Assembly (NCBI GenBank): GCA_944320495.1
Contig: CALUHR010000013.1
Span: 128,001 to 192,000, forward strand
Direction: 5' to 3'
DNA from: Candidatus Methanomethylophilaceae archaeon
GTDB taxonomy: Archaea; Thermoplasmatota; Thermoplasmata; Methanomassiliicoccales; Methanomethylophilaceae
DNA length: 64,000 bases
The notes under the pieces were generated by a model. The model worked only from the letters and a program-made list of their open reading frames with translations. It did not search any database and had not been told where the DNA came from. Below, piece by piece: positions 6,003 to 35,862 of this stretch. Position 1 is the stretch's first letter. Each line of letters opens with the position of its first letter. A program made the position numbers and the translations under genes.

Positions 6003-6041
6003 ATGACGGACATGGTGCGGATGGTATTTCCAGACAGCGCC

Positions 6042-6728
6042 TCATGCCTCCGCCAGCCTCTCCCTCGCCTCGGCGAAGGGATCGAACCTCACCAGCTCGA
6101 ACCCGACCCTGCGGTTCACCGCACCGATCTCGCCCCTGCACTCCCTCAGGTCCGCGCTGGACGCTCTGGACAGCATGCCGAAGAACCTAGCGTAGAAGAC
6201 GTCCAGCATGCCGCGGTACGTCACCAGCAGCCCCTCCAGGTCCGCCGAGCGGAGGTACCTCCGCTGGTCGGCGCTCCACATCTGGTCGGAACCGCACCTG
6301 CGGGTGAAGACCACCGCCCCTGTCCCCGGATCCACCTCCAAGGGCATCATGTCGACGTGCACCACGTAGTTCCTCAGATTGACCATCAGGGACGCCTCGA
6401 ATCCGAGGGACGACCTCTTGAGGTCCCGGAACTCCGCATCGACGCCGCAGCGCTTGGCGCTGACCGCCGCCAGGTTCTTGCAGGCGTACATCCTCGACAG
6501 GAAATCCGAGAGCGTCTGGCACAGTTCCATGGTGGACGATTCGAGGTCCCGGTAGCTGCTCCTCCCGGACCGTCCCGGTGACCTCATGGATGAGACGAGA
6601 CCGATGAGCTCCGACAGCTTGGAGTCCATCATGCCGTAGCACATGGACATCCTGCGGATGACCTCGTACGTTCTGAAGCTGCTCGATTCCCTGAGCCTCC
6701 TGAGTTCGACGGCGGGTTCCGAGGGCAT
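6042..6728 (-). CDS. Hypothetical helical protein with HEPN-like RxxxxH motif
   Basis: 228-aa ORF, host-like GC3, LRNYVVH motif. Confidence 0.6.
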   Translation of the reverse strand: MPSEPAVELRRLRESSSFRTYEVIRRMSMCYGMMDSKLSELIGLVSSMRSPGRSGRSSYRDLESSTMELCQTLSDFLSRMYACKNLAAVSAKRCGVDAEFRDLKRSSLGFEASLMVNLRNYVVHVDMMPLEVDPGTGAVVFTRRCGSDQMWSADQRRYLRSADLEGLLVTYRGMLDVFYARFFGMLSRASSADLRECRGEIGAVNRRVGFELVRFDPFAEARERLAEA

Positions 6729-6779
6729 GCGGATGAATCGCGGGCGGCCGTTATGAGCGTTGGCGACGTAGATTCCGTA
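6717..6779 (+). repeat. Left copy of 63-bp direct repeat flanking the island
   Basis: TTCCGAGGGCATGCGGATGAATCGCGGGCGGCCGTTATGAGCGTTGGCGACGTAGATTCCGTA; 59/63 identical to 21063-21125. Confidence 0.92.
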
Positions 6780-7003
6780 GGTCTAGTGGGATGACGTATG
6801 GTCGCCTGAAATCCCCGATCCTGCCCTCCAGCAGACTAGTTATCGTCAATGCACGGCCGAATTTGAGGTACATGAGGACACCGTCACAGCCCTATGGCGC
6901 CAGCTCAAGCTTGCCTGTATATTTTGATTATACCGACATGATGCCGCCATAACCTGGATACGGACCATGCCAGAATCATGAATCGTTAATGAAGTCCCTG
7001 CCA

Positions 7004-8104
7004 TCATGATAAACAGAGAGATAGGGTGAAAAACAGAACCAATGTGATCATGAACGACGCCGAGTTGCAGAGAACTATCTCAAAAACACTGCGATATTGG
7101 TATTCGGAGTACAGGAACTGCTTGAAAATCAAGGAGATCCTGCGCCGTTTAATGCATTGGACTGTACAACCTATATCCTCCACATAAGAAAGAAGAGCAA
7201 TAGTCAGTTCGCTTAAACCAGAGATTTTGCGGAAACGAACTAATGTCTCAAGGAGAACAGACAGAGTGAAATCCGATATCACAGCCAAGAATGCAATCAT
7301 GACGCAGAGTGGATCCGATGTCGCAAAAGACAGGATTGCACCTAACACCATCAATAGGATGTGTACGGGGACCTTGTTTATCCTGGGAATTGTTTTGTTC
7401 GGGTACTTTGATATGAGCTTGGCATCGGCCTTCCCGTAATTGTATAGTCTCCCAATCACGTCCCTCGGGTTGTCCCATGTTTTGTTTGAGTGGTATACTA
7501 TGGCATGACGGGCAGATGCTATGGTATATCCCGCCTCGTTCAACCTGACGCCTATATCGACGTCCTCCCCTCCCGGCTTATTCGGAAACGATTCATCGAA
7601 ACCTCCTATCTCCTCCAGGACCGCCTTTCTTATGGAAAAATTCGCAGTAGGGCCCCAAGGCACGGCGTCAACCTCGTTGGGGAGGGAAAATGCAATCATC
7701 CAGGGAGATCCACGAATTGTCCTGAAGAATCTGGTGTTCTCACCCTCCAATGTAATTGGCCCGCATGCGGCACCGATGTGACTCCCCTCGTATGAGGTCC
7801 AATGCGCCATTATCGCCCTTTTATCTAGAACACAGTCGGAGTCACAGTAGTATAGGAGCTCATACTTGGCATATTTCGCCGCAAGATTGCGCTTGATGGC
7901 CACCGACTCTCTTGCATAGTAATACCTGTACCCGAATTCCGAACACATCGATTCAATGATTCTAGCATCGTTCGTTTTGGAATTGTCTACGACAACGACC
8001 TCCCACGGCATGTCCTTGTCTGCGTCTAGTATGCTTTCGAACAATCTCCTGAGAAGAGCTATGCGACCGCAACAAACCACTAGGATGCTCACTCCATCCA
8101 TCAT
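7004..8104 (-). CDS. GT2 glycosyltransferase with C-terminal TM helices
   Basis: VVVVDNS, YCDSDC (DxD), GGFDE, GGEDVDIGVRL. Confidence 0.9.
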   Translation of the reverse strand: MMDGVSILVVCCGRIALLRRLFESILDADKDMPWEVVVVDNSKTNDARIIESMCSEFGYRYYYARESVAIKRNLAAKYAKYELLYYCDSDCVLDKRAIMAHWTSYEGSHIGAACGPITLEGENTRFFRTIRGSPWMIAFSLPNEVDAVPWGPTANFSIRKAVLEEIGGFDESFPNKPGGEDVDIGVRLNEAGYTIASARHAIVYHSNKTWDNPRDVIGRLYNYGKADAKLISKYPNKTIPRINKVPVHILLMVLGAILSFATSDPLCVMIAFLAVISDFTLSVLLETLVRFRKISGLSELTIALLSYVEDIGCTVQCIKRRRISLIFKQFLYSEYQYRSVFEIVLCNSASFMITLVLFFTLSLCLS

Positions 8105-8105
8105 A

Positions 8106-9920
8106 TCACATCATGAAGACAAGTGCACAGATTACGAATGAAAACGAACCAAGAGCCATACTCAGGCATGTGCATACAGTTCTCCTGACAATCTCCTTCT
8201 CATCGAAAGAGTAGAGCCTCAGTCTGAGGATAGAATCCAATCCAAATCCACGCAGAAATCTAATCCTTGCAATTTTACAAGATAGATTGCGATACATGAT
8301 CAACACGCATACGATCCTTGTAACAACCAACAACAGGAGGGATGCTGATGCCCAAAGTCTGATAGCCCCGTCTGCAAGGATAAAAAGAGCCAGCAGAACA
8401 ACAGCAACGGACAGGAACGCTGGAAATCTGTGCAGAGAAACCTCTGGCACAGCCCTGCAGATGGATGCGGCCTGCATGCCCCATAGCCGCTCCACAGCCT
8501 TCTCATACTCCTGGGGAACTCCGATCAGTGATGCGCTTTTATCGGAGCAAATATGCCTCCATCCGCTTACTTTGGCAATAACGTCTAGAGGTGTGCCGAA
8601 TCCCGCTCTAAGAACGTCCTCGGTCCGAACTATGTAGAGCATCCCCGGCTTGTAGAATTCTTCCATCGACAAGGAAAGTGACTCAGATATATCCTGAAAA
8701 AAATGGGATGTATCCATCCGGAGAGTGAGTCTGGCACATTCCCCCTGTTCGATTGTAGAAAGTACGTCACTCGACCTGACAGAACATCTTAGGGGACTTA
8801 TCACCATCATGTCGCATTTCAGAGATTCCAACGAGCGAATTGTCCCCTCGTCTGTCAGTTCAGGCTCCACTCCAACAAAGATACAACGTCCGATTCTGAG
8901 ACCGTTCTCATTGATGTAGCGATTCAGACGCCCGGAACGCCACATCATCATCGAAACCTTTGCATAACCTGCGACTGCAGAGAGTGCTTTGAAAAACGTG
9001 ACTGACCCGAATAGAAACACGGGAACCAAATATGCCGCCCAAATGGGATCGACATGAATCATGGAAACTAAAATCGCCAATGGAAGAAAAATTACGAAAG
9101 TTGGCGTCAGCGGAAGATAAGTATAATCGAAAAACGGCCACAAACCAGAACGCACGATGGCGCGAAGGGTGAACAGCTCAACCGCCAGCGAGGTCATGAG
9201 AATGACGAGATTGATTGGCCACCCTGACGTTGGCAGAATCATCACAATGCATGATGTCGCCAACCATTCCACGACTATGCATATGTAGATTCCCCGTTTG
9301 GAAGCGATCTGATGAGTGCCGAAGAAAGTTTTCGTTTTTGAAGCAACATCGTTGTCATGGTCCATCGACTGGTGTATGAGGATGTAACGGACTCCCAGAG
9401 CAAAACCCAGGATCATCGTCGCCGAAAATATCACCGGATTCACCGGGATCATGAGAGGCAATACAGTCAATGGACTGCAGCGTTGGGCATATGACGAGAC
9501 AATGACCCCCATCAACCCACGCTCCTTGAAACGGATCGGCCTCAGAGAATATGACGTACTCAGGAATAGATTCGTAACAACGACGATGGTCATTGGTATG
9601 CTCGGAAAAACAAATATCGGAATCAAAACCGGAACTGTCGCTAACAAGAGACTGCAGTATCTAAAACACATCGATCTGGTCGAGAACATATTCGATTTAC
9701 CGACTGCACGATCCTGCTCCACGTCGCTGAAATCATTGGCGACATAACCCGAAATCATAATTGCGACAGAAAGAACTGAGAAACACACAAATGGCAGCAC
9801 GGACTCTTCCGGAGTCACTCCGGACACCAGAAAGACCGCGATTGCCCCCAGCATTAGGAATGGAATCTTGGATCCAGCCCAATCATCCATTCTTAAACTT
9901 CTGATTCTCATAGAAGTCAT
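8106..9920 (-). CDS. UbiA-family prenyltransferase with long C-terminal extension (start uncertain, 9890-9932)
   Basis: Multi-TM; Asp-rich motifs NDFSDVEQD and HQSMDHDND. Confidence 0.75.
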   Translation of the reverse strand: MTSMRIRSLRMDDWAGSKIPFLMLGAIAVFLVSGVTPEESVLPFVCFSVLSVAIMISGYVANDFSDVEQDRAVGKSNMFSTRSMCFRYCSLLLATVPVLIPIFVFPSIPMTIVVVTNLFLSTSYSLRPIRFKERGLMGVIVSSYAQRCSPLTVLPLMIPVNPVIFSATMILGFALGVRYILIHQSMDHDNDVASKTKTFFGTHQIASKRGIYICIVVEWLATSCIVMILPTSGWPINLVILMTSLAVELFTLRAIVRSGLWPFFDYTYLPLTPTFVIFLPLAILVSMIHVDPIWAAYLVPVFLFGSVTFFKALSAVAGYAKVSMMMWRSGRLNRYINENGLRIGRCIFVGVEPELTDEGTIRSLESLKCDMMVISPLRCSVRSSDVLSTIEQGECARLTLRMDTSHFFQDISESLSLSMEEFYKPGMLYIVRTEDVLRAGFGTPLDVIAKVSGWRHICSDKSASLIGVPQEYEKAVERLWGMQAASICRAVPEVSLHRFPAFLSVAVVLLALFILADGAIRLWASASLLLLVVTRIVCVLIMYRNLSCKIARIRFLRGFGLDSILRLRLYSFDEKEIVRRTVCTCLSMALGSFSFVICALVFMM

Positions 9921-11250
9921 CTGCTCTGTCAACCTTCAGAAGTTCCAGACCGTTGTTGGTGATGAACATGCAGTTGTCACAGATCCTAGGCAGCTTTCCA
10001 CTGAAGAACAGTTCCCTCAACCTTACGAGAGGATTCCCGTTCCACACCTCGGTGAAATCACGATCGAGATTGCCAACGTTATGAAGAACGTCTATGCAGC
10101 ATGCGATGACCTCTCCCTTTGCCGTGACCATGGAGGTGTCCCAGATCCGGTCGCAGATGCCGTTGCAAGTGCTTCTGGATTTCTGGGGATTCAGGTCAAA
10201 TCCGTACAAGCTCCATCTCTCGCTCATTGGCGAGCATCTATCTATCTGGCGCGGTGGATCCCACGGCTCCGAACCTATGCGTATAATGTCTAAATCGTAG
10301 TCTGAATCCGAAAGAGACAAGAAATAATCAGGATAGATCAGCTCTATGCCTACAGCTTCTGCTACCTGAATTGCACGTTTTAGATGCGTTTTTAGAGCTG
10401 ATGGATACAGCACAGGGTCATCATATTTGTTCAAAGCATTGTCATTGATTCCCACTCTTGTGAAAATAACCCGTTGGAATCCGTTCTCGACAGCGTATTC
10501 GACTATACGCTCTAACTCAGCGATGTTGTGTCTCATCACCACTGTCGCCAACGTCATGAACGTTTGTGGTGAAGCCGACCTAAACCGACGGATGTTTTCT
10601 GTCACACGCTCCAGGTTCAGACCCTTACGTATGATGGAGTACATCCTCGGATCTACAGAATCCAACGAAACCGTCAATGTTTCAAATAAATCATGATGAG
10701 CCAGCACTGCATCCGGAAGTATTGACATGTTCGTGTTTGTGGACACATGGATGTGATACTTGGAATACAGATCTAAACGGGAACCCAGAGCAGGATCCAT
10801 GAACGGCTCCCCATTGCCATGTAGGACAATAGTGCGAAGATATGGCATCACAGATTCGAGACACGATACGAAATCATCCGTGAGATGGGATGCCCCGATA
10901 TTACGACGATAGTAGTGTACACACATTATACACTCTGCATTGCAAAATGACGTGTGCTCCAACTGAAGGGTCATTGGATAATGGCGGAATACAGACCTGC
11001 CTTCGACCAGATCGTGGCAGGCAAGTGCCTCATTGAGATCTTTGACGGTGTCGTAATCACCTAGCTCAAGACACGACAAGATCGTAGATTCTATGGCATC
11101 GGCATCGGAGAGATCCACATTCACACGGCCGTTTTCATAAGCAATGGGCGATTGACCCCGACGTATCATATCTGGCAACCAGTCTTTCATTGATTCGTGA
11201 ACAGGCGATTGACAGGTCACTTCCTGGATGTCATTGCCCGAAGACACCAC
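9883..11250 (-). CDS. Radical SAM protein with SPASM/twitch domain
   Basis: CNAECIMC, GNGEPFM, STNTN, VSLDS; C-terminal CDRIW...GEVIACC...VGNL...CDNC. Confidence 0.92.
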   Translation of the reverse strand: MVSSGNDIQEVTCQSPVHESMKDWLPDMIRRGQSPIAYENGRVNVDLSDADAIESTILSCLELGDYDTVKDLNEALACHDLVEGRSVFRHYPMTLQLEHTSFCNAECIMCVHYYRRNIGASHLTDDFVSCLESVMPYLRTIVLHGNGEPFMDPALGSRLDLYSKYHIHVSTNTNMSILPDAVLAHHDLFETLTVSLDSVDPRMYSIIRKGLNLERVTENIRRFRSASPQTFMTLATVVMRHNIAELERIVEYAVENGFQRVIFTRVGINDNALNKYDDPVLYPSALKTHLKRAIQVAEAVGIELIYPDYFLSLSDSDYDLDIIRIGSEPWDPPRQIDRCSPMSERWSLYGFDLNPQKSRSTCNGICDRIWDTSMVTAKGEVIACCIDVLHNVGNLDRDFTEVWNGNPLVRLRELFFSGKLPRICDNCMFITNNGLELLKVDRADDFYENQKFKNG

Positions 11251-11251
11251 A

Positions 11252-12121
11252 TCACACCCACAGATGCTGAGGGTAGGTTCCTTTCACCTTCTCTTCGTTA
11301 ATATGCTTCAAAAGAGCATCGTAATCATCGCGATACGTAACTCCCATCCATGATGCGTTCGTATCCACACAGTTCATCTTGATCTCCCCCAGAGATAGCA
11401 ACGAATCCAGAACAGTGGATAGCACGAACTCCTGTCCATCCTGCTCGTGATCCTTGATGAACATCTGAAGCCTCTGCCTTAACATAGTGAAAATCGAGGG
11501 ATTGAGCACGAACAGGTTCATGGAGACTGGATTACTCTCGCATATGCGCATTACTTTATCTGAATTCAAAGGACGACAAGCAATTCCATCCGAATCGACC
11601 CACACTTCCGACTCGATGATCCTGCGAATATGGCCGGAGTCTACCTTGCAAATGCCACGTTTCACCGTCCCGTGTGGAGAGAGTGTATTTCCGACTCTGT
11701 AGCATATGCAGCCACATTCTCCACTGCCTGAAAGCGGAGAGTTGAGCATTCCGGTAATAAGGGCACCCCTACCATAGAAATCATCAGCATTGACGACCAG
11801 AAACGGCTCCTCCAGGTGTCCTTCGCAGCAGAGAAGGGCAAATCCGGTACCAGATGGCAATACATGAACAGACATCTCATTTTCAGGATATTCCTGAATG
11901 ACGAATTCCAATGGAATCCTGGCACCAATTCTCGCCTTCAGAGCCTCGAAGAACTTCAGATGGCTCTTTTGAATAACTATGATGACTTTGCTGTAACCGC
12001 AAAGAATTGCATCATATATGGAATAGTCGATTAAGAAATTCCCGTCATCATCAACTGGTTCATACTGCTTCAACCCCCCGTATCTCTTACCGAGGCCGGC
12101 TGCCAGTATCACCATTTGCAT
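11252..12121 (-). CDS. Sugar-phosphate nucleotidyltransferase
   Basis: LAAGLGKRYGGLKQ, VVNADDFYG, WMGVTY. Confidence 0.88.
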   Translation of the reverse strand: MQMVILAAGLGKRYGGLKQYEPVDDDGNFLIDYSIYDAILCGYSKVIIVIQKSHLKFFEALKARIGARIPLEFVIQEYPENEMSVHVLPSGTGFALLCCEGHLEEPFLVVNADDFYGRGALITGMLNSPLSGSGECGCICYRVGNTLSPHGTVKRGICKVDSGHIRRIIESEVWVDSDGIACRPLNSDKVMRICESNPVSMNLFVLNPSIFTMLRQRLQMFIKDHEQDGQEFVLSTVLDSLLSLGEIKMNCVDTNASWMGVTYRDDYDALLKHINEEKVKGTYPQHLWV

Positions 12122-12231
12122 AATTGGGACATTGACGTACCATTATTAATTTTAACTATTTTAGTATAAATTCAATTTTGAATTTGATAATAATATTTAA
12201 GACCATTATCCAGATTGAACTATGAACGGTT
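12122..12231. promoter_or_regulatory. Divergent AT-rich promoter region with perfect 8-bp inverted repeat
   Basis: AAATTCAA-tt-TTGAATTT at 12168-12185; TATA-like TATTTAAG about 30 nt before ATG 12232. Confidence 0.6.
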
Positions 12232-13545
12232 ATGAAGACTGTGAGCGAGACCAAGATCGGATTCGTCGGACTGGGATACGTCGGCACGGTGAGTGCTGCA
12301 GGTTTCGCGATTCTGGGATTTGATGTTTACGGATACGATCTGGATGAAAGGAAAGTGACCAGTCTTATAAACAGACAGCCGCTCATCTACGAATCTGGAC
12401 TCCAGGAAGTTCTGTTAGACGCCGATATTTCATCAAGAATGCATTTCGTGTATGATATCGACAACCTGGTTGATAATGCGGACGTCATCTTCGTAACAGT
12501 TGGGACACCGGAATCTATTGACGGCTCCTGCAACACATCTTTTGTCACACAAGCTCTTGAATCCATACTGTCACGTCTCACAGAGAGAGGTCTGGACAGC
12601 ATTGTTGTGGTAAAAAGCACCGTGCCCGTAGGATTCACACAAGAATTCATCGATTCTCTTGGAAACGACGAAGGAATCTGTCGGAACATATGCTTCAGTC
12701 CAGAATTTCTCAGAGAAGGATCCGCTCTAGATGACTTTCTCAATCCGAGCAGGGTGGTGATTGGCACAACTGATGCAAGCATTTTCGAGACTGTTGCCCA
12801 CCTATACGGAAAATATGAATCGAAAGGAGTTCCGATTCTAATGATGGATCCGACCTCTGCCGAGCTAGTGAAGTATGCCTCTAACTCGTTTCTGGCAGCG
12901 AAGGTCGCTCTGATTAATGAATTCGCTGACCTTTCTCACGCTGTTGGTGCGAACATTGATACCGTGTCGAGAGCGATAGGAATGGACCCACGGATCGGTA
13001 ACGAGTTCATGCGCGCATCGGTCGGATTCGGTGGGAGTTGCTTTCCGAAAGATGTGTCTGAGATTGACCATAGATCCAATAGTCTTGGAATACGCCACCC
13101 CCTCATCGGCTCAATTCTTGAATCAAACAGAGCCCACATAGAGAGGATGACGGATCGCATTGACAGATGTGCGAAACATCAAGGAATCAGAACGATTTCA
13201 ATCCTGGGCCTGGCTTTCAAACCTGACTCGGATGATATCCGCGAATCCCCTGCCATTGAAATCGCATCGAAACTTCTTGAAAGAGGATATGTTGTGAAAG
13301 CATACGACCCACTGGCAGGACCCAATGCACTTCTAGCCCTGCCAAAGGGGATTGAGATACTCGACAATGCATACGACTGCATGAATGAGGCGGAGATGGT
13401 AACCATCCTAACGGGATGGCGTTCCTTCAGAGAGCTAAAATTCTGCAGGTCTGGAAGTGTGCGGATCGTTATGGATCTCGCCAATGTCCTGGACGGTGAA
13501 ACGATCGGTGCCATGGGGCTCGAATACCACAATATAACGGAGTGA
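12232..13545 (+). CDS. ugd: UDP-glucose 6-dehydrogenase
   Basis: GLGYVG, VGTP, KSTVP, PEFLREG, KYASN, GFGGSCFPKD, LGLAFKPDSDDIRESP. Confidence 0.95.
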   Translation: MKTVSETKIGFVGLGYVGTVSAAGFAILGFDVYGYDLDERKVTSLINRQPLIYESGLQEVLLDADISSRMHFVYDIDNLVDNADVIFVTVGTPESIDGSCNTSFVTQALESILSRLTERGLDSIVVVKSTVPVGFTQEFIDSLGNDEGICRNICFSPEFLREGSALDDFLNPSRVVIGTTDASIFETVAHLYGKYESKGVPILMMDPTSAELVKYASNSFLAAKVALINEFADLSHAVGANIDTVSRAIGMDPRIGNEFMRASVGFGGSCFPKDVSEIDHRSNSLGIRHPLIGSILESNRAHIERMTDRIDRCAKHQGIRTISILGLAFKPDSDDIRESPAIEIASKLLERGYVVKAYDPLAGPNALLALPKGIEILDNAYDCMNEAEMVTILTGWRSFRELKFCRSGSVRIVMDLANVLDGETIGAMGLEYHNITE

Positions 13546-14678
13546 CGAATACGACCGTTGACTTCTCCATCGTCATACCCACATGGAACAGAAAGGAGTA
13601 CGTTGAACGTCTCCTGAAATCCATCGCAGAGGACAGACAATCCTACACGGGCGGCTCTACAGAGATAATAATCGTAGACAGTAGCGTGGATGAGGAACGC
13701 GACTCCATAATGGAATCCTGCAAAAGGTATGGTGCACGCTATATTGAAGGGCCCGACTCTGTGAGGAAAAAACGCAACATGGGAATCGTGGATTCGCGGT
13801 TCGACCATATCCTCTTCCTAGACTCAGACGTCATAGTGGAGAAGGGACTTCTGGAAGCGCACGCCAGAGTGTACGAAGAGTCCCCATCAGAGAATCTTGG
13901 AGGCACATTCGGCGTAACCGAATTCTATGGAGAAAGGTCATTCATCTGGAAAGTTGTCGAATACACGAACTACACTGTTGCGTTCGATCAGGCTAAGAAA
14001 TACCCCTATGTGAACTGGACGATTGGAAACAACGTTTCTTTCGTAAAGAAATGTCTCGTAGACATAGGTATGTTCGAAGAAAACCTGCCGTTTAAGCTTG
14101 GAGGAGATGATCTCGATCTAAGCTATCGGGTAGTCGCCAGCGGGCATCCGATCAAATGTACGTCAGAGGCAGTGACATATCATTCTCGTGAAACATGGAA
14201 TTCCAGAGATGCCATCAATAACAGGACGAAGAGATGGGGTGCGATGGAGTACTACAACTCGAAACGTCACTGGAATTTGATGAAGAAGACCCTCCCCGGG
14301 CTTCCGATCATGTTCTCTATGGCAACACTGTCCCTTTTGATATCATTCCTAATAACAGAATCAACAGCGTTTCTATGGTCTATCCCTGTGATCGGTATTC
14401 TGACGTTCATAATCGGTTTTGCCTGTGATGCTACTAACAGCCACAGATACAATATCATATACTATGGATTAGCGAAACTCCTCGGTGTAAAATACAGCTA
14501 TTACAAAATCAAAGAGTGCTGGCACAATCATGACTTCGGGCTGATTGGAAGAGTCATGATCTTTGACAAAGGACATGCCATGGCCGAATATTCTGCGAGA
14601 AGCCGTAAAATGGACTGGTTCCTGATATCGTCCGTAGCAGTATTCCTCATAGATTTCCTACTTACAAGGATGGGTTGA
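13542..14678 (+). CDS. GT2 glycosyltransferase with C-terminal TM helices
   Basis: SIVIPTWNR, IIIVDS, FLDSDV, GGDDLDLSYR. Confidence 0.9.
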   Translation: MTNTTVDFSIVIPTWNRKEYVERLLKSIAEDRQSYTGGSTEIIIVDSSVDEERDSIMESCKRYGARYIEGPDSVRKKRNMGIVDSRFDHILFLDSDVIVEKGLLEAHARVYEESPSENLGGTFGVTEFYGERSFIWKVVEYTNYTVAFDQAKKYPYVNWTIGNNVSFVKKCLVDIGMFEENLPFKLGGDDLDLSYRVVASGHPIKCTSEAVTYHSRETWNSRDAINNRTKRWGAMEYYNSKRHWNLMKKTLPGLPIMFSMATLSLLISFLITESTAFLWSIPVIGILTFIIGFACDATNSHRYNIIYYGLAKLLGVKYSYYKIKECWHNHDFGLIGRVMIFDKGHAMAEYSARSRKMDWFLISSVAVFLIDFLLTRMG

Positions 14679-14682
14679 CTCC

Positions 14683-15789
14683 ATGGACTTCAGTGTCGTT
14701 ATACCGGCCCGCGGTCGCACGGATCTCCTCAGAACACTGCTGGAGAGCCTGAATACCGCCAGGGGTTTCAATGACGGTGATGTGGAAATCCTGATTCTAG
14801 ACGATAGCGACGAACCGTATTCGACAGCGATCAAATCCATGTCTACAGGACTCGGTGCAAGCTATATTCGTGCTGAAATGACAGTGGGTGCTAAGAGAAA
14901 TCTCGGTGCCAGAATGTCAAATCACGACATCGTTGTTTTTCTTGATTCAGATGTTCGTGTGTCCGATAATTTCTTCTGCGGATATGAAAGGGTTTTCGCC
15001 GCCAAGGAGATCAACATGGCGATAGGACTTTTGGAGTTCTATGGCGACGAGAGCTGGTACTGGAAGGTTGTCAAGTCCACCCCGTTCGTAAAATGTTTTG
15101 ACATGCCACGGTACATGGACATGCTCCCATGGGGATGTTCCTGCAACATGGCAGTCCGGAGAGACTTCTTCCTTGAACTATCCGGATTCAGCGATGAATT
15201 CCGCGAACCGGCAGGAGAGGATGTTGATCTAGGCCTTAGGGTTAGCAAGCGCCACATTCCAATAGTCCCAGTCAAAGAATCGGTGGCGTTCCATTCCAAC
15301 ACCACCTGGTCAAAGAGACGGGACATGATCCGTCGTGTTTGCATGTACGGGAGAGGGGATGCAGTCCTTGTTGAACGCCATCCTGACTCGACGGTGAGAT
15401 CGGGCCTCCGCCGTTGGATCTTTTTCCTCGCTATCACCATAATCTGCTGTCTTTCGGCAATCGTTTCTGAAAATGCCTGGATGCTTCTGATGATACCGAC
15501 ACTCATTGTTGCCGAACTCCTCGCTGTATCTGCCAAGATATCGGTAAAAACTGAAGATGTTAGCCTGTGTCAGGCACTGGCATCCCAAGAGCTGGTGCTA
15601 CGCAATGAGCTGTCATACATCTTGACCTGCATATCAAGAGGACATCCGGGCAACGTCTTCAGACAGATCGTCACCGTTGAGGGACAGGCATATGACATCT
15701 TGGATTTCATGAGATTCGCCTACCTATTGGACCTTGGTCTGCTGATGCTCCTCTTCATATTCTCGGGATTGGTGATAACATATGCATGA
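14683..15789 (+). CDS. GT2 glycosyltransferase with C-terminal TM helices
   Basis: SVVIPARGR, LILDD, FLDSDV, AGEDVDLGLR. Confidence 0.9.
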   Translation: MDFSVVIPARGRTDLLRTLLESLNTARGFNDGDVEILILDDSDEPYSTAIKSMSTGLGASYIRAEMTVGAKRNLGARMSNHDIVVFLDSDVRVSDNFFCGYERVFAAKEINMAIGLLEFYGDESWYWKVVKSTPFVKCFDMPRYMDMLPWGCSCNMAVRRDFFLELSGFSDEFREPAGEDVDLGLRVSKRHIPIVPVKESVAFHSNTTWSKRRDMIRRVCMYGRGDAVLVERHPDSTVRSGLRRWIFFLAITIICCLSAIVSENAWMLLMIPTLIVAELLAVSAKISVKTEDVSLCQALASQELVLRNELSYILTCISRGHPGNVFRQIVTVEGQAYDILDFMRFAYLLDLGLLMLLFIFSGLVITYA

Positions 15790-16972
15790 AGAACAGATGA
15801 AAAAATTCCTCCAGTGCGTAAAGTCGGGTTATTTCAACAATCCTGTCACCATAGAACGTGTAGAACCGTTGAAAGGTCTGTCAGAGCTGTCATATGACGA
15901 CTTTTGTCACATCCCGGTAATGACGAAGAGCGACATAAGATCGACATCCATCGAAACACGCGAACTCGAAAGCGGAAGATGCGTCGGCATATTCTCCAGC
16001 AGCGGATCCACCGGCAAGAGGACATATTATAAGTTCAGCCAAGAGGACCAGGATGTCTTCAATGAGACTGCCAGAGAGCTGTTCGGCAGACTCGGCGTGA
16101 ATTCCGACGATGTCTTCGCTGTTTGTGCCCCCGTAGGGGAGGGGATAATGGCCCACTGCATGATATGGGAGGCCATTGCCAACTGCTCGGGGTATACTGT
16201 ATGCCCAACCCCATCGCCTTCGAATGTGATGGAAATGTTGGACAACATCCCTGTAACGATAATAGCGGGATTGCCGTCTGTCTTGGACTTCTCGCTTGAA
16301 TCAGAGAAGGGGACACAGAGCCATAAGACGCATCTTCGCATGATGATCTCTGGCGGGCACTATATGTCCGAAGCGAAGCGCGATCGCATCGAGTCAGTCT
16401 GGGGGATAGAATGGTACAATGCGTATGGAATCAGCGAATTCTTCGGTCCGTTGATGTGCGAGTGCCGCTGTAAAAACGGATTCCATTACAACCAGAAATG
16501 TCTCTTCGTCGAAATTGTAGATGTCCATTCCAAAGAACCTATCGAGGGACCGGGGAAAATCGGCATAATGTTGCTCACACCTCTATGGAAGAAAGGATCC
16601 CCTCTGATCAGATACTGGACTGACGACTACGCCGAATGGATAGACGAACCCTGTACTTGCGGTGCATTCGGACGCAGAATCAGGATACTTGGCAGACAAT
16701 GTGATGTGATTTGCATCAATGGGAGATACATCTTCCCCAACGACATCGAAGAGATTCTCGTCAGGAACAGCAGAAACACCTTGGCATACTTCGACATCGA
16801 AGATGATGATATCGTCTGCTTCCTCCCGGAAATTAACGGATCATGCGGAGAGCTTGAGAGACTCTTTGACACAGAGATTCACTTCAAAACAAAGAGCGAA
16901 TGGCCCAATATCAACCGCCCGAAGCCATATTACTTCAGCAAAACATTGAAACAGAGGCTGAGTGACAGATGA
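15782..16972 (+). CDS. PaaK/F390-synthetase-like adenylate-forming ligase
   Basis: SSSGSTGK loop, YNAYGISE, PLIRYWTDD, ILGRQCD. Confidence 0.88.
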   Translation: MHEEQMKKFLQCVKSGYFNNPVTIERVEPLKGLSELSYDDFCHIPVMTKSDIRSTSIETRELESGRCVGIFSSSGSTGKRTYYKFSQEDQDVFNETARELFGRLGVNSDDVFAVCAPVGEGIMAHCMIWEAIANCSGYTVCPTPSPSNVMEMLDNIPVTIIAGLPSVLDFSLESEKGTQSHKTHLRMMISGGHYMSEAKRDRIESVWGIEWYNAYGISEFFGPLMCECRCKNGFHYNQKCLFVEIVDVHSKEPIEGPGKIGIMLLTPLWKKGSPLIRYWTDDYAEWIDEPCTCGAFGRRIRILGRQCDVICINGRYIFPNDIEEILVRNSRNTLAYFDIEDDDIVCFLPEINGSCGELERLFDTEIHFKTKSEWPNINRPKPYYFSKTLKQRLSDR

Positions 16973-17892
16973 GTCGCATACTTGTCACCGGAGGACTTGG
17001 ATTCATCGGAACCAACCTGACCCTCAGGCTATTGAAATCAGGTGACGAAGTGGTGGTCATAGATAATGCGTATACCTCCAGCCTGGAGCGTATTTCTGCA
17101 TTCGAAGAATACGATGGATTCGAATTCATAAACCAAGATGTAACAACGCCTTTTGATGAACTGAACGTTGATGGCATCTATCATCTGGCCGCACCTGCAT
17201 CTCCGATAAAATACTCCAGAAATCCGGCGTATACCGTCAGAACCATCGTGGAAGGCGCGTTCAATGCATTGGAATGCGCGAGGAACAATGATTGCCGCAT
17301 ACTGGTTGCGTCCACCAGCGAGATTTATGGTGAGTGTGAAAAACACCCTCAGAGCGAAACGTACAACGGCAATGTTTGCACCATGTCCACAAGAGCCTGT
17401 TACGATGAGGCCAAAAGATGCGCAGAGACGGTCTCATTCTGCTATCATGAGACATATGGCGTAAACGTCGTCTGCCCCCGTATTTTCAACACGTATGGGC
17501 CATACATGCAGCTTGATGACGGCCGTGTGATGACCTCATTCATCAGTTCGCTTCTGAAATCAGAACCCCTGAGGATTTTTGGAGATGGGGAACAGACGAG
17601 ATCGTTCTGCTACATCGACGACCTGCTCGACGGTTTAGAACTTGTATTCTCATCCTCACTGAAAGGCAAAGCCATCAACATCGGCAATGATTTCGAGATA
17701 TCAATAAACAAATTGGCGGACATATTCGAAGAGATCTGCGGAAGGAGCTTTGAAAGAATCTATGAGAAACGCATGGACCACGAACCGATGAACAGGTGTC
17801 CCGACCTTAGCCTTATCCGCAACACACTAGGTTACAGACCGAGGATGAACATCCGCGACGGCCTGACTCGTATGGTTGAGTTCTACAGGCGA
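16969..17892 (+). CDS. uxs: UDP-glucuronate decarboxylase (UDP-xylose synthase)-like SDR; ends at CGA 17890-17892 (standard-code end 17949)
   Basis: GGLGFIG, HLAAPASP, ASTSEIYG, RACYDEAKRCAE, RIFNTYGP, QTRSFCY. Confidence 0.88.
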
Positions 17893-17896
17893 TTCG

Positions 17897-18757
17897 ATGG
17901 AAGTCACAGTAGTCATCCCAACACTGAACGAAGAAAAGCATATTCGTGAGTGCCTAGAGAGTGTGTGGTCCAATACTGTGAAACCGATTGAGATCCTTGT
18001 CTGCGATGGAGGATCCGATGATGAAACTGTTCGCATCGCTGAATCTCTAGGGGCTAAAGTCCTTATCAACAAGGACCGGACAGCTGCAACCGGCCGCAAC
18101 CTTGGCATAGCCAATGCCTCCGGTGACATAATCGCGTTCACCGACGGGGACTGCAAAGTCGATGTACATTGGATCGAATCTTTGCTGAAGGAGTTCGAAG
18201 ATTGCAATGTAGATGGCGTTGGTGGCAAAACCATTCCTGCTGATACAGATAATGAAATTGAGAGATTCTGGGGGCATATATCTCTCGAAGTCATCATGTC
18301 GTTTCCGGATCATGATTATACTGTAACCAATCGGACTCTTAATGATGCGTTTATTACTGCCAATTGTTCCTATAGGACTGATTTTCTTAGAACAATTGGC
18401 GGTTTTGACCCTTGGTTCGGCAACAACGCAGAGGATGTTGACCTATCGTGGCGTGCACTTAGTCACGGTGCGAAGCTCAGATATTGCCCTCATGCCGTGG
18501 TCATCGCTCATTCTCCTCAGACAATACGCGAAATGTGCCAGAAGAGCTTCCGCAATGGGGTCTCCTCCACCAAACTCCAGAAAGTACACAGCGGAGAGGA
18601 ATCCAGCCTCGATATCGAACTGTATCACACCCTGGTCAGATCGCTCATTGGGACGTTTAAGATGAACAAACAAGACCTTCTGCTGTCTGTCGAATTGATG
18701 TGTCACATTTGGGGAAAGATATCGAGCAGCAGAAAACTGCACTACCGTAACTGGTGA
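17897..18757 (+). CDS. GT2 glycosyltransferase
   Basis: VVIPTLNEE, DGGSDD, FTDGDC, GGFD, EDVDLSWR. Confidence 0.9.
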   Translation: MEVTVVIPTLNEEKHIRECLESVWSNTVKPIEILVCDGGSDDETVRIAESLGAKVLINKDRTAATGRNLGIANASGDIIAFTDGDCKVDVHWIESLLKEFEDCNVDGVGGKTIPADTDNEIERFWGHISLEVIMSFPDHDYTVTNRTLNDAFITANCSYRTDFLRTIGGFDPWFGNNAEDVDLSWRALSHGAKLRYCPHAVVIAHSPQTIREMCQKSFRNGVSSTKLQKVHSGEESSLDIELYHTLVRSLIGTFKMNKQDLLLSVELMCHIWGKISSSRKLHYRNW

Positions 18758-19701
18758 TCGGGATGGATGAGATTATACTGGAAATCAGCGGGAATTGCAA
18801 TCTCGATTGCAATATGTGTGGATACGGAAGATCCAAAACGAAAGAAAAAAAGCTCATGACCCGCAAGATGTTCGAACATGTGATTGAACACTACTGCGAG
18901 GGCATACGGACCCTTCGGTTGAACGCGTGTGGAGAGAGTACTATACACCCTGAATTTAAAGAACTCCTATCCTACGCAAGACAGACACTGCCTGACGTTG
19001 ATATCAAACTATTCTCCAACATCAATTATCGGGATCCGTCCATCTCGAAAGCCATAGTAGATGCGGATGTGCAACTGATCATGTCCATAGACTCTGTGGA
19101 TCGTGATCGTATAGGGATCATAAGACGCGGATCGGACTATGACACCATTATGCGCAACTTCGATTATCTGTCCAGAAATCTGAAATTGAAGGCTGTTATG
19201 TTTACTCTGCAGACCAGAAACTTCGATGAGCTGATGGAGGTCGGAAGGTTCTCGCTAGATCACGATTGCCACTTCTTCTGCAACATGGTTAATGGTGAAC
19301 CGCACCTCTCGGAGTTGGAATCGCTGCTGATGAACGAAGACAATCTGATGAAGCTTAGATCTGAATTCGAAGAACTTCATCGTCTCGCGGTTTCAAAAGG
19401 GCTTAGAGCATTTCTGCCAGACCACGTCGGAACTGTGCACATACCGGCAAATGAAACAGACGACCTTATGCTAAAAACCACTGGGCAGGGCCGTTGTAAT
19501 CGTTTCCAATCCGAACTATGCATACATTATGATGGCACGGTGACACCTTGCGGAATGTTCAACCCCTATATCTACGGGAATGTCATGGATTACACTCGCG
19601 AATCTCTGCTGGAATCGGAAAGATATCGTCTTTTCCAGAAAAACCAGGCCAATGATGATTACTGCAAAAACTGCGGATGCATGCTGGTTCAGGAATTATG
19701 A
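18754..19701 (+). CDS. Radical SAM protein with SPASM/twitch domain
   Basis: CNLDCNMC, GESTIHP, SIDS; C-terminal CNRF...DGTVTPC...YGNV...CKNC. Confidence 0.9.
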   Translation: MIGMDEIILEISGNCNLDCNMCGYGRSKTKEKKLMTRKMFEHVIEHYCEGIRTLRLNACGESTIHPEFKELLSYARQTLPDVDIKLFSNINYRDPSISKAIVDADVQLIMSIDSVDRDRIGIIRRGSDYDTIMRNFDYLSRNLKLKAVMFTLQTRNFDELMEVGRFSLDHDCHFFCNMVNGEPHLSELESLLMNEDNLMKLRSEFEELHRLAVSKGLRAFLPDHVGTVHIPANETDDLMLKTTGQGRCNRFQSELCIHYDGTVTPCGMFNPYIYGNVMDYTRESLLESERYRLFQKNQANDDYCKNCGCMLVQEL

Positions 19702-20993
19702 CCGTGACGCCTAGATCAAATGATGGCCTTTCGATAATCATCATTACACATAACAATGAATATATTGTAAGAGTTGTGGAGGCCGTATTGGAACAGATCT
19801 CACCGGTAGACGAGGTCATACTTGTGAATGATCATTCGGATGAAAGATTCCTAAGCGGCATCCCCACACATCCATCATTGAAGATTGTAACACCGGTGAT
19901 GGAGGGCAACAGGAGCCATAATAGGAATATCGGTGCTGAACTCTCATCCCGCGGAATCCTAGTCTTTATCGATGGGGATGTCCTAATCCAAGAAGGATCG
20001 CTATCTTGTATACGCGATACGGGTAAACATACACCCCTCACCTTCAATGTCATGGCACAGTCAATCACTCTGGAACAGTTGTGTATGCTGAATCAGAGAA
20101 CGGACATTATGAACGCCGTACTGAACAAGAGATTCGAGTATCTGGATCACCTCGACGGTATGCGTGATTGGCGCTTGGATGATTCACCCTACGGTCCTGA
20201 CATGGAGGATTGGTGCGTGTTCTACACATTGTTCTGTTCCATCCCAAAACATCTCTTCGTTCAGGCAGGAGGATTCGACGAATCCATTCACGGATGGGGC
20301 TGTGAAGACGTGGATCTTGGATTCAGACTGAAACGGATGGGAGCGAACATACATTTCATCGAAACAATTCGTGCTATACACATTCCACACCCCCGTAACA
20401 ACTACATTCAGAACTTGAATGGACGCAGGAATCTCTACCATATGCTCCAAAGATACAGGGATATCGACATTGAACGCGTGATAGCATTCGGCACATCATG
20501 TATGGTCAGATCTGCTTTATCGAACATACTCGAGAAATGCTCATCCATGGATGATACGAGTATAATACCGTCAGATTGTGATTTGATTCTCACATTTCGT
20601 TCTGGAAATCCAGTCTTGATAGTACGCGATAAAGACAGAAAAACCGAATGGCCATCAATGGGTCTAGCTATACCGTTTGAGAACACCCACTTTCATCAAG
20701 CGTACATTTCTGAGAATTACTTCCTGCTCCCTGAAGGATTATATTGCAGGGTTCTTCAGGAACTGTGTCGCGTTTCGAAGTATGTGATTACAAGATGTCC
20801 CGATAGAAAAAACAGACCGACATTCGATAGATGGGTTCATGACTCTTTGAAACACGCATACTGCTACACAGATATCATCCATCTATCCAATCAAATCAGG
20901 GATTTTTCATTCCAAAACAACGGAGAGTACATCGAAGTTTCATATCAGCCTGGATTTGATAATAGTCGCGAACCTAACATGTTGAATGATCGA
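19698..20993 (+). CDS. GT2 glycosyltransferase with degenerate methyltransferase-like C-terminus; ends at CGA 20991-20993 (standard-code end 21431)
   Basis: SIIIITHN, LVNDHS, FIDGD, GGFDE, GWGCEDVDLGFRL; tail IPFENTHF...LQELCRVSK. Confidence 0.82.
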
Positions 20994-21062
20994 TTCGATG
21001 TCCCATCCATAACAAGAGTGGAACAGGTTGAGATTCAATGGCATATGAACCTCAATTCGAAA

Positions 21063-21125
21063 TTCCGAGGGCATGCGGATGAATCGCGGACGGCCGTTAT
21101 GAGCGTTGGCGATGTAGAATCGGTA
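21063..21125 (+). repeat. Right copy of 63-bp direct repeat flanking the island
   Basis: TTCCGAGGGCATGCGGATGAATCGCGGACGGCCGTTATGAGCGTTGGCGATGTAGAATCGGTA; 4 mismatches to the left copy. Confidence 0.92.
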
Positions 21126-21148: not shown

Positions 21149-22297
21149 TCACCTTCTAGCCACCCGTGCCTCCAGACCGTCGATCCTGGACCCCAGAAGA
21201 TCCACTATCGCCGCATCCCTCCCGGTCCTGCGGAACATCTCCACCTTGGAGAACACCTCGCAGGCCCTGTCGACCCCCTCCCTCAGGGCGTCGAAGTCGA
21301 TCCATCCGACATCGCGGACCAGCCTCATCTGCTCCGACCAGTGCTCGGAGAAGGGCTTGCACCCCTTACCCGCATCTGCGACGATCGAACCCTCCCAGCA
21401 GTCGAACCCCATGCTGGAGCCGCTGTCATAGACCGGTGCGGGGGACACCCATTCCAGGGAATGCGCGTCGCGGATTATGCCGAAGTTGTTGAGATGGCGG
21501 TCGCCGTTGGCGATGACATAGTCCAGGACCATCATCCGGTCCAGTGCCGGGACGGCGTCGATGCCGTGACGGGCGCAGCACGAGACGTAGTGGTCGTAGT
21601 CCGGCACTCCCGCATCATGGACCTCCGAACGCATGACCTGGTACGCCGGGACGAGCTCCGTGTCCGCGGTCACGAAGTCCTCGCATACGCTGCACGGGGT
21701 GCCTCCATAGTCTATCACGGAGTAATCGACATGATCCATACCGAGCGAATCCGCTATGATGCCCGCAGCCACCTCGTTGAACGGCTCCTGCATGTATGGC
21801 TTCGTTCCAGATTTGATGAGACAGCGCCTTCCGTCCATGATCTTCCAACGCTTGGTCAGCATACCGTCAGAAGCAGAGTCCGGCGATGAGAAATCCATGG
21901 AACCCGTCCAGACCTCCCTCCCGAAAAGAAGATCTCCAACATCGTCCGAGAAGGGATTATCGAAGAAATTCACCTCGGACCATTCGAGATCCGAACCAAC
22001 CGGACGTATCCAGTAGTGGTCCGATAGGCTCAATCCCAATGATTTCCTCAGGAGTAATTCAGTGTTGGAGATGTCGAGCTTCTCGAGTACATGCTTGATT
22101 CCGCTACGCGACATAGGAATCGCTCTGGAGGACCACCATCTCTGAAGCCTCTCCGGACGTACGATATCATCTATCACAGTGCCCACAGGCATGTGTGCCA
22201 CATCGTACACACTCCCCATGTGCACCATGACCCCTGTGACATACTCGAGATCGATGGAGGCGACCGTGACATCCCCGTGCATCAGCTCGAACAGCAT
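21149..22297 (-). CDS. HipA-like kinase domain protein
   Basis: SDGMLTKRW, LIKSG, EPFNEV, DYVIANGDRHLNNFGII, APVYDSGSS; the ATG at 22312 is followed directly by CGA, so the start is placed at 22297. Confidence 0.85.
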   Translation of the reverse strand: MLFELMHGDVTVASIDLEYVTGVMVHMGSVYDVAHMPVGTVIDDIVRPERLQRWWSSRAIPMSRSGIKHVLEKLDISNTELLLRKSLGLSLSDHYWIRPVGSDLEWSEVNFFDNPFSDDVGDLLFGREVWTGSMDFSSPDSASDGMLTKRWKIMDGRRCLIKSGTKPYMQEPFNEVAAGIIADSLGMDHVDYSVIDYGGTPCSVCEDFVTADTELVPAYQVMRSEVHDAGVPDYDHYVSCCARHGIDAVPALDRMMVLDYVIANGDRHLNNFGIIRDAHSLEWVSPAPVYDSGSSMGFDCWEGSIVADAGKGCKPFSEHWSEQMRLVRDVGWIDFDALREGVDRACEVFSKVEMFRRTGRDAAIVDLLGSRIDGLEARVARR

Positions 22298-34131: not shown

Positions 34132-34419
34132 TCACAGCGTAAGGATGTTGGAGCTGCCCTTGTCGATGACGACCAGAGCGGAGACGGAGAACGGCTTTCC
34201 GCACAGGGCGCCGAGCTCCATGTTGTTTCCGTCGAACACGTGGACCTTCACACCGATGTCGCCGGTGAGCTCCTTGCAGGGGCAGTTCCTGGCCAGGACG
34301 ACCATCTGGGCGTTCCCGTTCTTGACGGCCTTGAGGGTCTGGTCGACCCCGAACTCCACCTTTCCGGTGGTGATGGCGGATTTCAGCGCCCTGCTAATAT
34401 CGATCTTCTCGTCACTCAT
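34132..34419 (-). CDS. rpl30e: 50S ribosomal protein L30e
   Basis: [18 protein letters not shown]. Confidence 0.96.
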
Positions 34420-35861
34420 ATCTTGTCATCCCCGTTCTTCTTCTTGGGTGTGTAAATCAGGTTTACAGCGCCGGTACCGAGGGTGACCGGCTGTCCGACG
34501 ATGATGTTCTCGGTGACTCCCTCCAGGGGGTCGGTCTCGCCCACCATCGCGGCGTGCAGCAGATGCGCTGCGGTGATCTCGAAGGCCGCCCTTGCGAGCA
34601 CGGAGGACTTCTTTCCGGAGACTCCGTGCCTTCCGATGGCCTTCACGTATCCGTCGTTCGTCATGAGGTCGGCGACCAGCATGATGTGCCTTATGTCGAC
34701 GTCCAGACCGGCCTCCCCGAGGGTGCCCATGGCCTCATGGATGATCGAGTTCCTGGCGGCCTCGATACCCAGGACGTCGGCGACCTCCAGGATGCTGTTC
34801 GTCATGACGTTGTCCGCGTCGACGCCCTCCACCTTGAGCACCTCCTTGAGGTTGCTGCCCTCGGTGATGATCTTCCAGGTGCCCTCCGTCTTGGACAGGA
34901 TGGCCCTGGTGATGCCGTCGATCCCCTTGATCTTGGCATTCTTGATGGCGTCGAACATCAGCTGAAGCTTCTTGTAGGACGGTTCGTCCGAGGTCACGAC
35001 GATCTCGAACCCGTCCTTCTGGACCATTCCCTTGACCGCCTTCACCTTGCCGAGCCTCTCGACGATGTCGTCCTCGGTGATGCCCTTGGCCTCCATCTTG
35101 CGGGGCTCGGGCACGATGATGAGCCTCATGTTGGTGATGTCGGTCTCCACGCGGGCGACGTCCAGCAGGGTCGTGATCTCGATGTTGGAGGCCACGAACT
35201 TGGCGACCATCTCGTCCTCCGCGGCGGTGCCGATGAGGGGGATGTTCATGGACGGCGTGGAGGGTATGCGCCTGGCGTCGACGATCTCGATCAGCCTGGG
35301 CAGACCCTGGGTGACGTTCACGTTCGCGACTCCCGCGTAGTGGAAGGTACGCATGTTCATCTGCGTACCCGGCTCTCCGATGGAGTGCGCGGCCATGACT
35401 CCCGCCGACTCGTTCTGGTCCATCTTGTGCCTGACGTACATCTCGTTGGCGCGTCTGAGCAGCGCCTCGCACTTGTCGTCGGGCAGGTCGGCGTTCTTGA
35501 TGCGGGCGGCGATGTCGACGACGACCTTCAGCGGAAGCTCGATGCCGAGCCTGTCCCTCATCTCCTTGAGCCTGGTCTCGCCCTCGTTGAGGACGTACTC
35601 CTTGACGACCTCCTCCATGGGGGCGACTGGCTCGATCTCCTCGACCTCCTTCTTCGCCTTGGACGGCGCGGAGGCCTTCCTCTTGCCGATCTTGGCGAGA
35701 ACGGAAGCCGCCTCCTCCTCCATCAGACCGAGGTTGACGAGCTCCGCCTCGCCGGCGTTGGCGATGGCGGTGAGCGAGGTGTACTTGGTGAGCAGCAGCG
35801 CGGTGGTCTCCTCGGAGATCCCCCTGCTGGTCAGAGCCTTGATGGTGTCCTTCCTTGCCAT
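34416..35861 (-). CDS. rpoA2: RNA polymerase subunit A'' with N-terminal extension
   Basis: [44 protein letters not shown]. Confidence 0.96.
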
Positions 35862-35862
35862 A

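Follow-up and report, generated by a model that had tools for sequence, protein, structure and literature searches.

The question raised by this locus is how a segment of strongly deviating composition can be read without damage in an archaeon that appears to use an arginine codon as a stop. The window, by which is meant the whole analysed stretch of 64,000 nucleotides (nt), corresponds to C13:128001-192000 of the genome G000 of a Candidatus Methanomethylophilaceae archaeon (1.77 Mb, 14 contigs, approximately 61% GC). It includes an island of 12 genes (window positions 7004-20993) in which the codon CGA is never found inside a gene. A previous sequence-only reading proposed that the donor, a lower-GC relative, already used the code of the host, or that the code filters incoming DNA. 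The absence of CGA is real. It was probably inherited from a CGA-free gene pool common to the genus and its neighbours, with a close relative as the immediate donor.

CGA appears to be used by the host as a fourth stop codon. Treated as such, it ends 405 of the 1657 called genes (24%) and, in the backbone of the window, 12 of 49 genes. In open reading frames (ORFs) with a high GC content at third codon positions (GC3), CGA occurs about 12 times per length decile in mid-ORF but 272 times in the decile at the ORF end; for control codons, the change is 1.5- to 2-fold. Where the first CGA lies in the 3′ half of an ORF, GC3 falls from 0.865 before it to 0.667 directly after it, whereas values of 0.81-0.86 are kept after control codons. 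CGG encodes arginine. The tRNA set is of the archaeal type and retains a tRNA gene with the anticodon UCG (C13:413317-413390, outside the window). This gene is also found in G013 (L115:18696-18769) and G054 (L130:14810-14884); thus G000, G013 and G054, three genomes with CGA stops, all keep it. In all three, the anticodon-stem pair adjoining the loop is mismatched (A-A, T-C and A-A), which leaves a stem of 4 base pairs.

The 12 island ORFs contain 296 arginine codons: AGA, 102; CGC, 59; AGG, 58; CGT, 54; CGG, 23; CGA, 0. The previous count of over 150 holds as a minimum but is an undercount; the recount otherwise bears out the claim that no internal CGA is present. A-ending codons are frequent (GGA, 112; ACA, 79; GCA, 74; AGA, 102), and GC3 bias is no explanation, as had been argued. 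From the A-ending share of seven four-fold families of the island itself (15-38%), 25-84 in-frame CGA are expected; the probability of finding none is at most 2e-12. The trinucleotide CGA occurs 271 times on the + strand, against 297 expected under a first-order model, and 86, 158, 75, 46 and 160 times in the five other frames of the ORFs. In-frame TGA is also absent inside them. Since CGA is plentiful off-frame and in-frame CGA and TGA are both at zero, CGA is distributed like a stop. The genes end at TGA (10 of 12) or at CGA (two of 12), never at TAA or TAG. The absence of in-frame CGA is thus far beyond chance.

The features of the island and of its borders are given below in window coordinates, followed by the strand. 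The length of proteins is in amino acids (aa); Arg, number of arginine codons.
6042..6728, -: host gene, 228 aa, without Pfam family; 95% nt identity in the sister species G018.
6717..6779, no strand: left copy of the 63-nt repeat (attL-like); equals the single copy of the sister except at its right end.
6780..21062, no strand: inserted segment, ~47% GC; missing from the sister species G018.
7004..8104, -: GT2 glycosyltransferase, 366 aa; TGA stop; 23 Arg, 0 CGA.
8106..9932, -: UbiA-like membrane protein, ~601-608 aa; TGA stop; 40 Arg, 0 CGA.
9883..11250, -: radical SAM/SPASM protein, 455 aa; TGA stop; 0 CGA.
11252..12121, -: NTP-transferase-like protein, weak MobA-like match, 289 aa; TGA stop; 0 CGA.
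12232..13545, +: UDP-glucose/GDP-mannose dehydrogenase family protein (Ugd-like), 437 aa; TGA stop; 0 CGA.
13542..14678, +: GT2 glycosyltransferase, 378 aa; TGA stop; 0 CGA.
14683..15789, +: GT2 glycosyltransferase, 368 aa; TGA stop; 0 CGA.
15782..16972, +: AMP-binding (adenylating) enzyme family protein, 396 aa; TGA stop; 0 CGA.
16969..17892, +: Uxs-like NAD-dependent epimerase/dehydratase, 307 aa; ends at CGA 17890-17892.
17897..18757, +: GT2 glycosyltransferase, likely start ATG 17897 (MEVTVVIPTLNEE...); TGA stop; 0 CGA.
18754..19701, +: radical SAM/SPASM protein, 315 aa; TGA stop; 0 CGA.
19677..20993, +: last GT2 glycosyltransferase, 438 aa; ends at CGA 20991-20993.
21063..21125, no strand: right copy of the 63-nt repeat (attR-like); two left-hand differences from the sister, right end equal.
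21149..22297, -: HipA-like kinase gene beside the island; absent from the sister G018 too.

According to Pfam matches, all 12 genes are biosynthetic: five GT2, Ugd-like, Uxs-like, UbiA-like, two radical SAM/SPASM, one AMP-binding and one weak nucleotidyltransferase match. On this content, the island is a predicted gene cluster for the synthesis of a glycan, either lipid-linked or at the cell surface. Pfam gave neither an integrase nor any other mobility gene among the 12 genes; the five tyrosine recombinases of the genome are encoded elsewhere.

The two genes said to end in CGA, uxs and the last GT2, do so. To judge from their homologues, these CGA codons are the true ends of the genes. The predicted proteins finish with ...VEFYR (Uxs-like) and ...NMLND (last GT2). 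Up to the CGA, the last GT2 has 438 aa; its homologues have 435-437 aa, and their ends fall no more than 5 residues away from the CGA. One of them, P0129, an orthologue with 88% identity, has 436 aa. Under the standard code, the island protein would reach 584 aa, being read 146 codons further, across the right repeat and into host DNA; this 146-aa read-through tail has no counterpart among the homologues. The distance from the CGA to the right repeat, previously put at 70 nt, is 69 nt, and all 12 ORFs are intact. The Uxs-like homologues have 307-318 aa, against 307 aa up to the CGA, which lies 4 nt before the next ATG (17897). This ATG opens a typical GT2 N-terminus, and the Uxs-like gene and the following GT2 gene would overlap by 53 nt under the standard code.

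A 73-nt segment across the CGA of the last GT2 is 82% identical in G064, another member of the genus, in which the CGA codon is replaced by TAA (AAT TAA TTCGATG in G064, GAT CGA TTCGATG in the island). This segment (window 20962-21034; last 30 nt of the final GT2 gene and 41 nt downstream) resembles the ends of two G064 contigs (L013 and L015, from G064:C31 and C9, positions 3-75). Both contigs diverge after the shared segment, and none of the island proteins has a homologue encoded on them; islands of this type may have the segment in common as a boundary or as a module for recombination. A 4-nt insertion creating the CGA of the last GT2 was considered, the +1 frame (DSMSHP-stop) resembling the tail of P0129 (NSMPHP), but is not supported by G064, which aligns without gap and has TAA at this position. 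Both CGA stops lie within an identical 10-mer, CGATTCGATG (window 17890-17899 and 20991-21000), of which the genome has 15 copies; its presence at both stops may be a coincidence.

The island differs in composition from its surroundings, with a GC content of 0.44-0.50 (~47%) against ~0.62 in the flanks and a GC3 of 0.53 against 0.89 in the host backbone. It is bordered on both sides by a 63-nt direct repeat, the copies of which are 94% identical and start 14,346 nt apart, which gives an insertion of 14.3 kb. The left copy consists of the first 12 nt of the host gene 6042..6728 and of the region upstream of this gene. In the sister species G018, whose flanks have 92-95% nt identity, contig C91 is continuous through the site and carries one copy of the repeat. 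The variants are reciprocal: the left copy equals that of G018 except at its right end, and the right copy shows the converse. A single crossover between two diverged copies would therefore fit. From the four variant positions in 63 nt, the previous host is inferred to be a relative at about the distance of G018.

A search of 61 other species of the genus gave no island DNA. The island is ~99.5% identical in contigs of four independent bird-gut and manure studies (four sequencing runs, contigs compared at 80% likeness), some of which bridge the left repeat and the right junction. The sequencing runs found are without exception of DNA. Among the matches listed from the four runs, there is no diverged copy of the island and no contig spanning an empty site. 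On composition, junctions and distribution taken together, the island is read as a recently inserted, unameliorated foreign segment; its entry is proposed to have followed the split from the sister species.

G018 carries its own insert of ~3.6 kb (L011:8598-12203), between the equivalents of window positions 6031 and 6037 and 700 nt from the empty site. This insert is for the most part low in GC (its two genes have 43-46%); both genes are CGA-free and end at TGA. At the place of the HipA-like gene, G018 has ~115 nt instead, and paralogues of this gene (64-73% nt identity) are scattered in several genomes of the genus. The neighbourhood of the island site appears to be an insertion hotspot.

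Close relatives of the island genes are rare. Only three close relatives of the UbiA-like protein were found among 5.8 billion proteins, and a search of 260 other species of the order gave no homologue. Both for this protein and for the last GT2, orthologues exist at 88-89% and at 81-82% identity. Cluster members of these orthologues are carried by an NCBI contig of 47,159 bp (P0143 and P0153) and by a Logan contig of 76,564 bp (P0144 and P0158); related islands therefore sit inside genomes. P0129 is encoded on an ENA contig of 18,207 bp. Scans of genome and metagenome contigs, for which the UbiA-like protein and the last GT2 were used singly and as alignments, gave no close relative, only GT2 homologues at 25-38%. 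Outside the island family, the best matches of the Uxs-like protein are 52-60% identical, one being labelled Lachnospiraceae; genomes of the order give at most 45% identity, and nothing close was found in the family. A comparison of synonymous codon usage with 23 sampled genomes singled out no donor: the usage of the island is near unbiased, and every genome with a GC3 of 0.42-0.62 fits about equally.

The distribution of CGA was examined in 23 relatives, sampled over 16-120 kb each. Only codons within BLASTP alignments to G000 proteins were counted, and the end of a gene was taken as the first stop-like codon after alignments reaching the C-terminus. The choice of ORFs by length alone was rejected, as it produced false "internal" CGA in G060 and others, and was replaced by homology-supported codons. 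RNA polymerase genes (window 34416-42161; loci L034-L073) were also rejected as a test of the code. They have neither CGA nor CGG in most of the family, CGG being an ordinary sense codon elsewhere in the same genomes; both are missing because highly expressed genes are codon-biased, and such genes are therefore a poor test set for a change of CGA.

In 14 members of the genus, CGA accounts for 0-1 of 199-1541 arginine codons. The values are 1/1541 in G060 (48% GC), 0/709 in G050 (53% GC), 0/465 in G008 (52% GC) and 0/582 in G074. CGA is equally scarce in genus g14 (0/678), genus g10 (1/566) and the two genomes of genus g20 (0/395 and 0/591). Higher proportions are found in genera g15 (0.9%; G113, 9/1025), g19 (0.7%; G130, 9/1234) and g22 (2.3%) and in families f7 (1.8%) and f6 (11%), where CGA is mostly aligned with arginine.

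Gene ends at CGA are found in fewer genomes. They are frequent in G013 (7/36), G055 (7/16) and G054 (6/24); the counts in G004 (1/27) and G046 (1/22) are at background level. None was found in G060 (0/97), G050 (0/39), G008 (0/22) and G074 (0/32), that is, in 190 genes with a C-terminal alignment (loci L094-L105 and L120-L121), nor in G153 (0/29 gene ends, 0/591 arginine codons). Orthologues of CGA-ended genes of G000 end at TGA or TAA in G060, G050 and G074. The loss of sense CGA is thus much wider than the use of CGA as a stop, which seems, on these alignments, to be confined to part of the genus. This suggests that CGA disappeared from genes across several genera first and became a gene-ending codon later, in some genomes only. 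The relatives with neither use are evidence for a stage, seen in living genomes, at which CGA is unassigned.

These proportions constrain the origin of the island. At loci with homologous genes from other families and metagenomes, CGA represents 4.5-21% of arginine codons; 13-60 CGA would therefore be expected in an island received recently from such a donor, which rules out an ordinary donor with the standard code as a recent source. If the donor belonged to the CGA-free clade, 0.15-0.3 CGA are predicted per 296 arginine codons, with a probability of 0.75-0.86 of finding none. For a donor like g15 or g19, 2.3-2.7 CGA are predicted and this probability is 0.06-0.10. The previous hosts of the island were thus already without sense CGA. 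The reading of CGA as a stop is not required: as CGA-free coding extends to genomes without CGA stops, a donor merely lacking CGA explains the count equally well. The claim that the donor already used the code of the host therefore stands for the lack of sense CGA but not for the stop, given the absence of CGA ends in G060, G050, G008 and G074. Likewise, the island is foreign and has 47% GC, but an immediate donor of lower GC is not needed, and the chimeric repeats point to a close relative rather than to a distant low-GC one.

According to the favoured explanation, the cluster would have circulated for a long time among hosts that had lost sense CGA. The corresponding pool would comprise the genus and neighbouring genera of the family, with GC contents of 48-63%. 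A close relative having this locus would have been the source of the island, which would have entered through one crossover: the ~63-nt sequence upstream of the host gene would have recombined with a diverged copy carried by the incoming DNA, which was probably circular. The lack of CGA would then not result from purging in the present host. In hosts reading CGA as a stop, CGA could arise at gene ends, and two island genes would now depend on it; a close relative using CGA stops is suggested as the immediate donor by these two genes together with the chimeric repeat. Several points weigh against this explanation. No donor genome was identified, the nearest relatives being orthologues of 81-89% identity only. 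The sampled low-GC relatives have no CGA stops and leave the two CGA-ended island genes unexplained. The ultimate origin, at least of the Uxs-like gene, may be bacterial or otherwise outside the order, long ago, in which case the cluster lost its CGA, or was purged of it, earlier. As a mobility gene is missing from the island, the crossover model is based on four variant positions in 63 nt. Lastly, an identical empty site would result if G018 had lost an older island through recombination of the repeats.

The last two points also favour the view that the island is not foreign but an old resident lost from G018, its low GC content being due to local constraints and its conformity to the code being trivial; its stops (10 TGA, two CGA, no TAA) resemble those of the host. 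This is quite unlikely. Island DNA is not found in the 61 other species of the genus, a GC3 of 0.53 beside 0.89 would be hard to maintain for a resident, the reciprocal repeat variants favour a crossover of diverged copies over duplication in place, and related islands (82-89% identity) are present on other long contigs. The Uxs-like homologues at 52-60% identity, one labelled Lachnospiraceae, against at most 45% within the order, would agree with a recent import from a standard-code donor, such as a gut bacterium, followed by the replacement of every CGA by selection in the present host. Such a history is very improbable: each of the 13-60 expected CGA would truncate its gene at arrival and leave selection nothing to keep, the contrast of GC3 shows no amelioration, the island is ~99.5% identical across four studies and all 12 ORFs are intact.

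The filtering of incoming DNA by the code is correct insofar as CGA would truncate foreign genes, but filtering alone cannot pass a cluster of 12 genes from a CGA-using donor with 13-60 CGA. It would suffice only if the donor were a standard-code genome with very rare CGA, like those of g15 and g19 (43-44% GC, same family), and if the two CGA stops arose later. The count alone cannot reject such a donor (probability of no CGA in 296 codons, 0.06 from G113 and 0.10 from G130), and the codon usage of the island fits these genomes as well as others. This explanation is nevertheless considered unlikely. The UbiA-like protein has no homologue in 260 species of the order, and the family has no close Uxs homologue. 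When all low-GC islands of the host are pooled (716 arginine codons, no internal CGA), the probability falls to 0.001-0.004. The chimeric repeats need a donor ~93% identical over 63 non-coding nt, which is far closer than another genus. Inheritance from a CGA-free pool through a close relative is therefore preferred.

Other mobile DNA of the lineage shows the same property. Five further low-GC islands of G000, with ~420 arginine codons, have CGA only at ORF ends. One is a defence island (C3:7918-15318) that encodes Vsr, a C-5 methylase (Dcm) and an HpaII-type endonuclease beside a tyrosine recombinase; it includes two more genes, of 33-35% GC, without Pfam family. Its methylase gene has a CGA five codons before the TGA and probably ends at this CGA. 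Another defence island (C14:23338-33550) encodes Vsr, HATPase_c_3, Z1, DUF4420, AIPR, a C-5 methylase (Dcm) and HNH. The other islands are one with an Mrr-like gene and two blocks without Pfam match. A 7.7-kb low-GC island of G064 (165 arginine codons) is also CGA-free, and none of the five tyrosine recombinases of G000 (5/5) has an internal CGA.

Searches of G000 for terminase and HK97 capsid genes gave none, and proviruses of genus relatives were used instead. A terminase gene is present in 13 of 62 genomes of the genus. In ten proviral regions (95 ORFs of at least 200 codons), 10 CGA were counted among 1369 core arginine codons, at least 5 of them in two doubtful ORFs, against 2081 off-frame CGA in the same cores. 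Several proviral ORFs have a CGA among their last few codons. G000 also carries an array of clustered regularly interspaced short palindromic repeats (C6:66300-66816) with nine repeats of 28-29 nt (GTGCTCCCCGCGAATGCGGGGGTGATCC) and spacers of 32-33 nt; four of the nine spacers were compared with IMG/VR and gave no exact match.

Islands, integrases and proviral regions are thus essentially without internal CGA, and the mobile gene pool of the genus conforms to the code. This fits the suggestion that the code is a barrier to horizontal transfer and viruses, but does not separate it from an ordinary co-evolution of the elements with their hosts. The islands and integrases examined contained no gene broken by CGA, an observation that bears neither for nor against a barrier. 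It is proposed only tentatively, and with more doubt than confidence, that the loss of CGA and its reuse as a stop form a natural genetic firewall, islands, defence systems and viruses being exchanged only within the CGA-free pool.

Some known systems resemble this one in part. In the codon capture model of Osawa and Jukes, a codon passes through an unassigned stage, as proposed for CGG in Mycoplasma capricolum and for AGA and AUA in Micrococcus luteus. Here too, the codon vanishes across a clade before it gains a new meaning (G060, G050, G008, G074 and g20 have practically no CGA inside genes and none at gene ends). In the classical cases, however, the change comes after extreme pressure towards GC or AT, and the codon is left unassigned or is captured by an amino acid, whereas this clade spans 48-63% GC and the codon returns as a terminator in part of it. 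Sense codons have become stops in organelles: AGA and AGG in vertebrate mitochondria (table 2), TCA in Scenedesmus (table 22), TTA in Thraustochytrium (table 23). A former sense codon likewise ends genes here (~24% of the genes of the genome, two of the 12 island genes), but organelles have tiny genomes without uptake of foreign DNA, unlike a free-living archaeon with islands and proviruses.

In recoded Escherichia coli (Syn61 derivatives, swapped-code strains), a changed codon meaning makes incoming standard-code genes unreadable. Foreign genes with an in-frame CGA should similarly be truncated here; the effect was engineered and measured in E. coli, whereas here it is inferred only, from mobile DNA that conforms to the code. 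Low-GC polysaccharide clusters, such as O-antigen and capsule loci, are exchanged within a genus. Like the island, they are rich in glycosyltransferases, have a GC content far below that of the chromosome, vary between close species and have conserved bounds; the island is however bounded by a chimeric direct repeat of 63 nt instead of conserved flanking genes, and its host is an archaeon with an altered code. In two archaeal assemblies from hydrothermal vents, CGA is absent from recognisable domains and a stop role was raised as a possibility (Melnykov, bioRxiv 10.64898/2026.04.02.715157). In these archaea, GC is ~50%, CGG encodes tryptophan and tRNA(UCG) is lacking, unlike G000, in which CGG encodes arginine and tRNA(UCG) is kept; that report (bioRxiv 10.64898/2026.04.02.715157) is silent on mobile DNA.

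One practical consequence concerns annotation: under the standard code, genes of these genomes are over-extended or fused, as for the 438-aa glycosyltransferase of the island, which becomes a protein of 584 aa. The suggested order, loss of CGA first and its use as a stop later, is the one that the codon capture model predicts, observed here in living relatives. If CGA, formerly an arginine codon, is read as a stop in a free-living archaeon, the fate of incoming DNA bears on the genetic isolation of its lineage; isolation by a change of code is not known to have been demonstrated outside engineered bacteria. The island is a concrete case, being a recent and unameliorated insertion yet wholly compatible with the code of its host, likely because it comes from a wider CGA-free pool that includes relatives of very different GC content. 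If the firewall exists, the DNA of surrounding bacteria and of other archaea would be truncated at its arrival in these gut methanogens.

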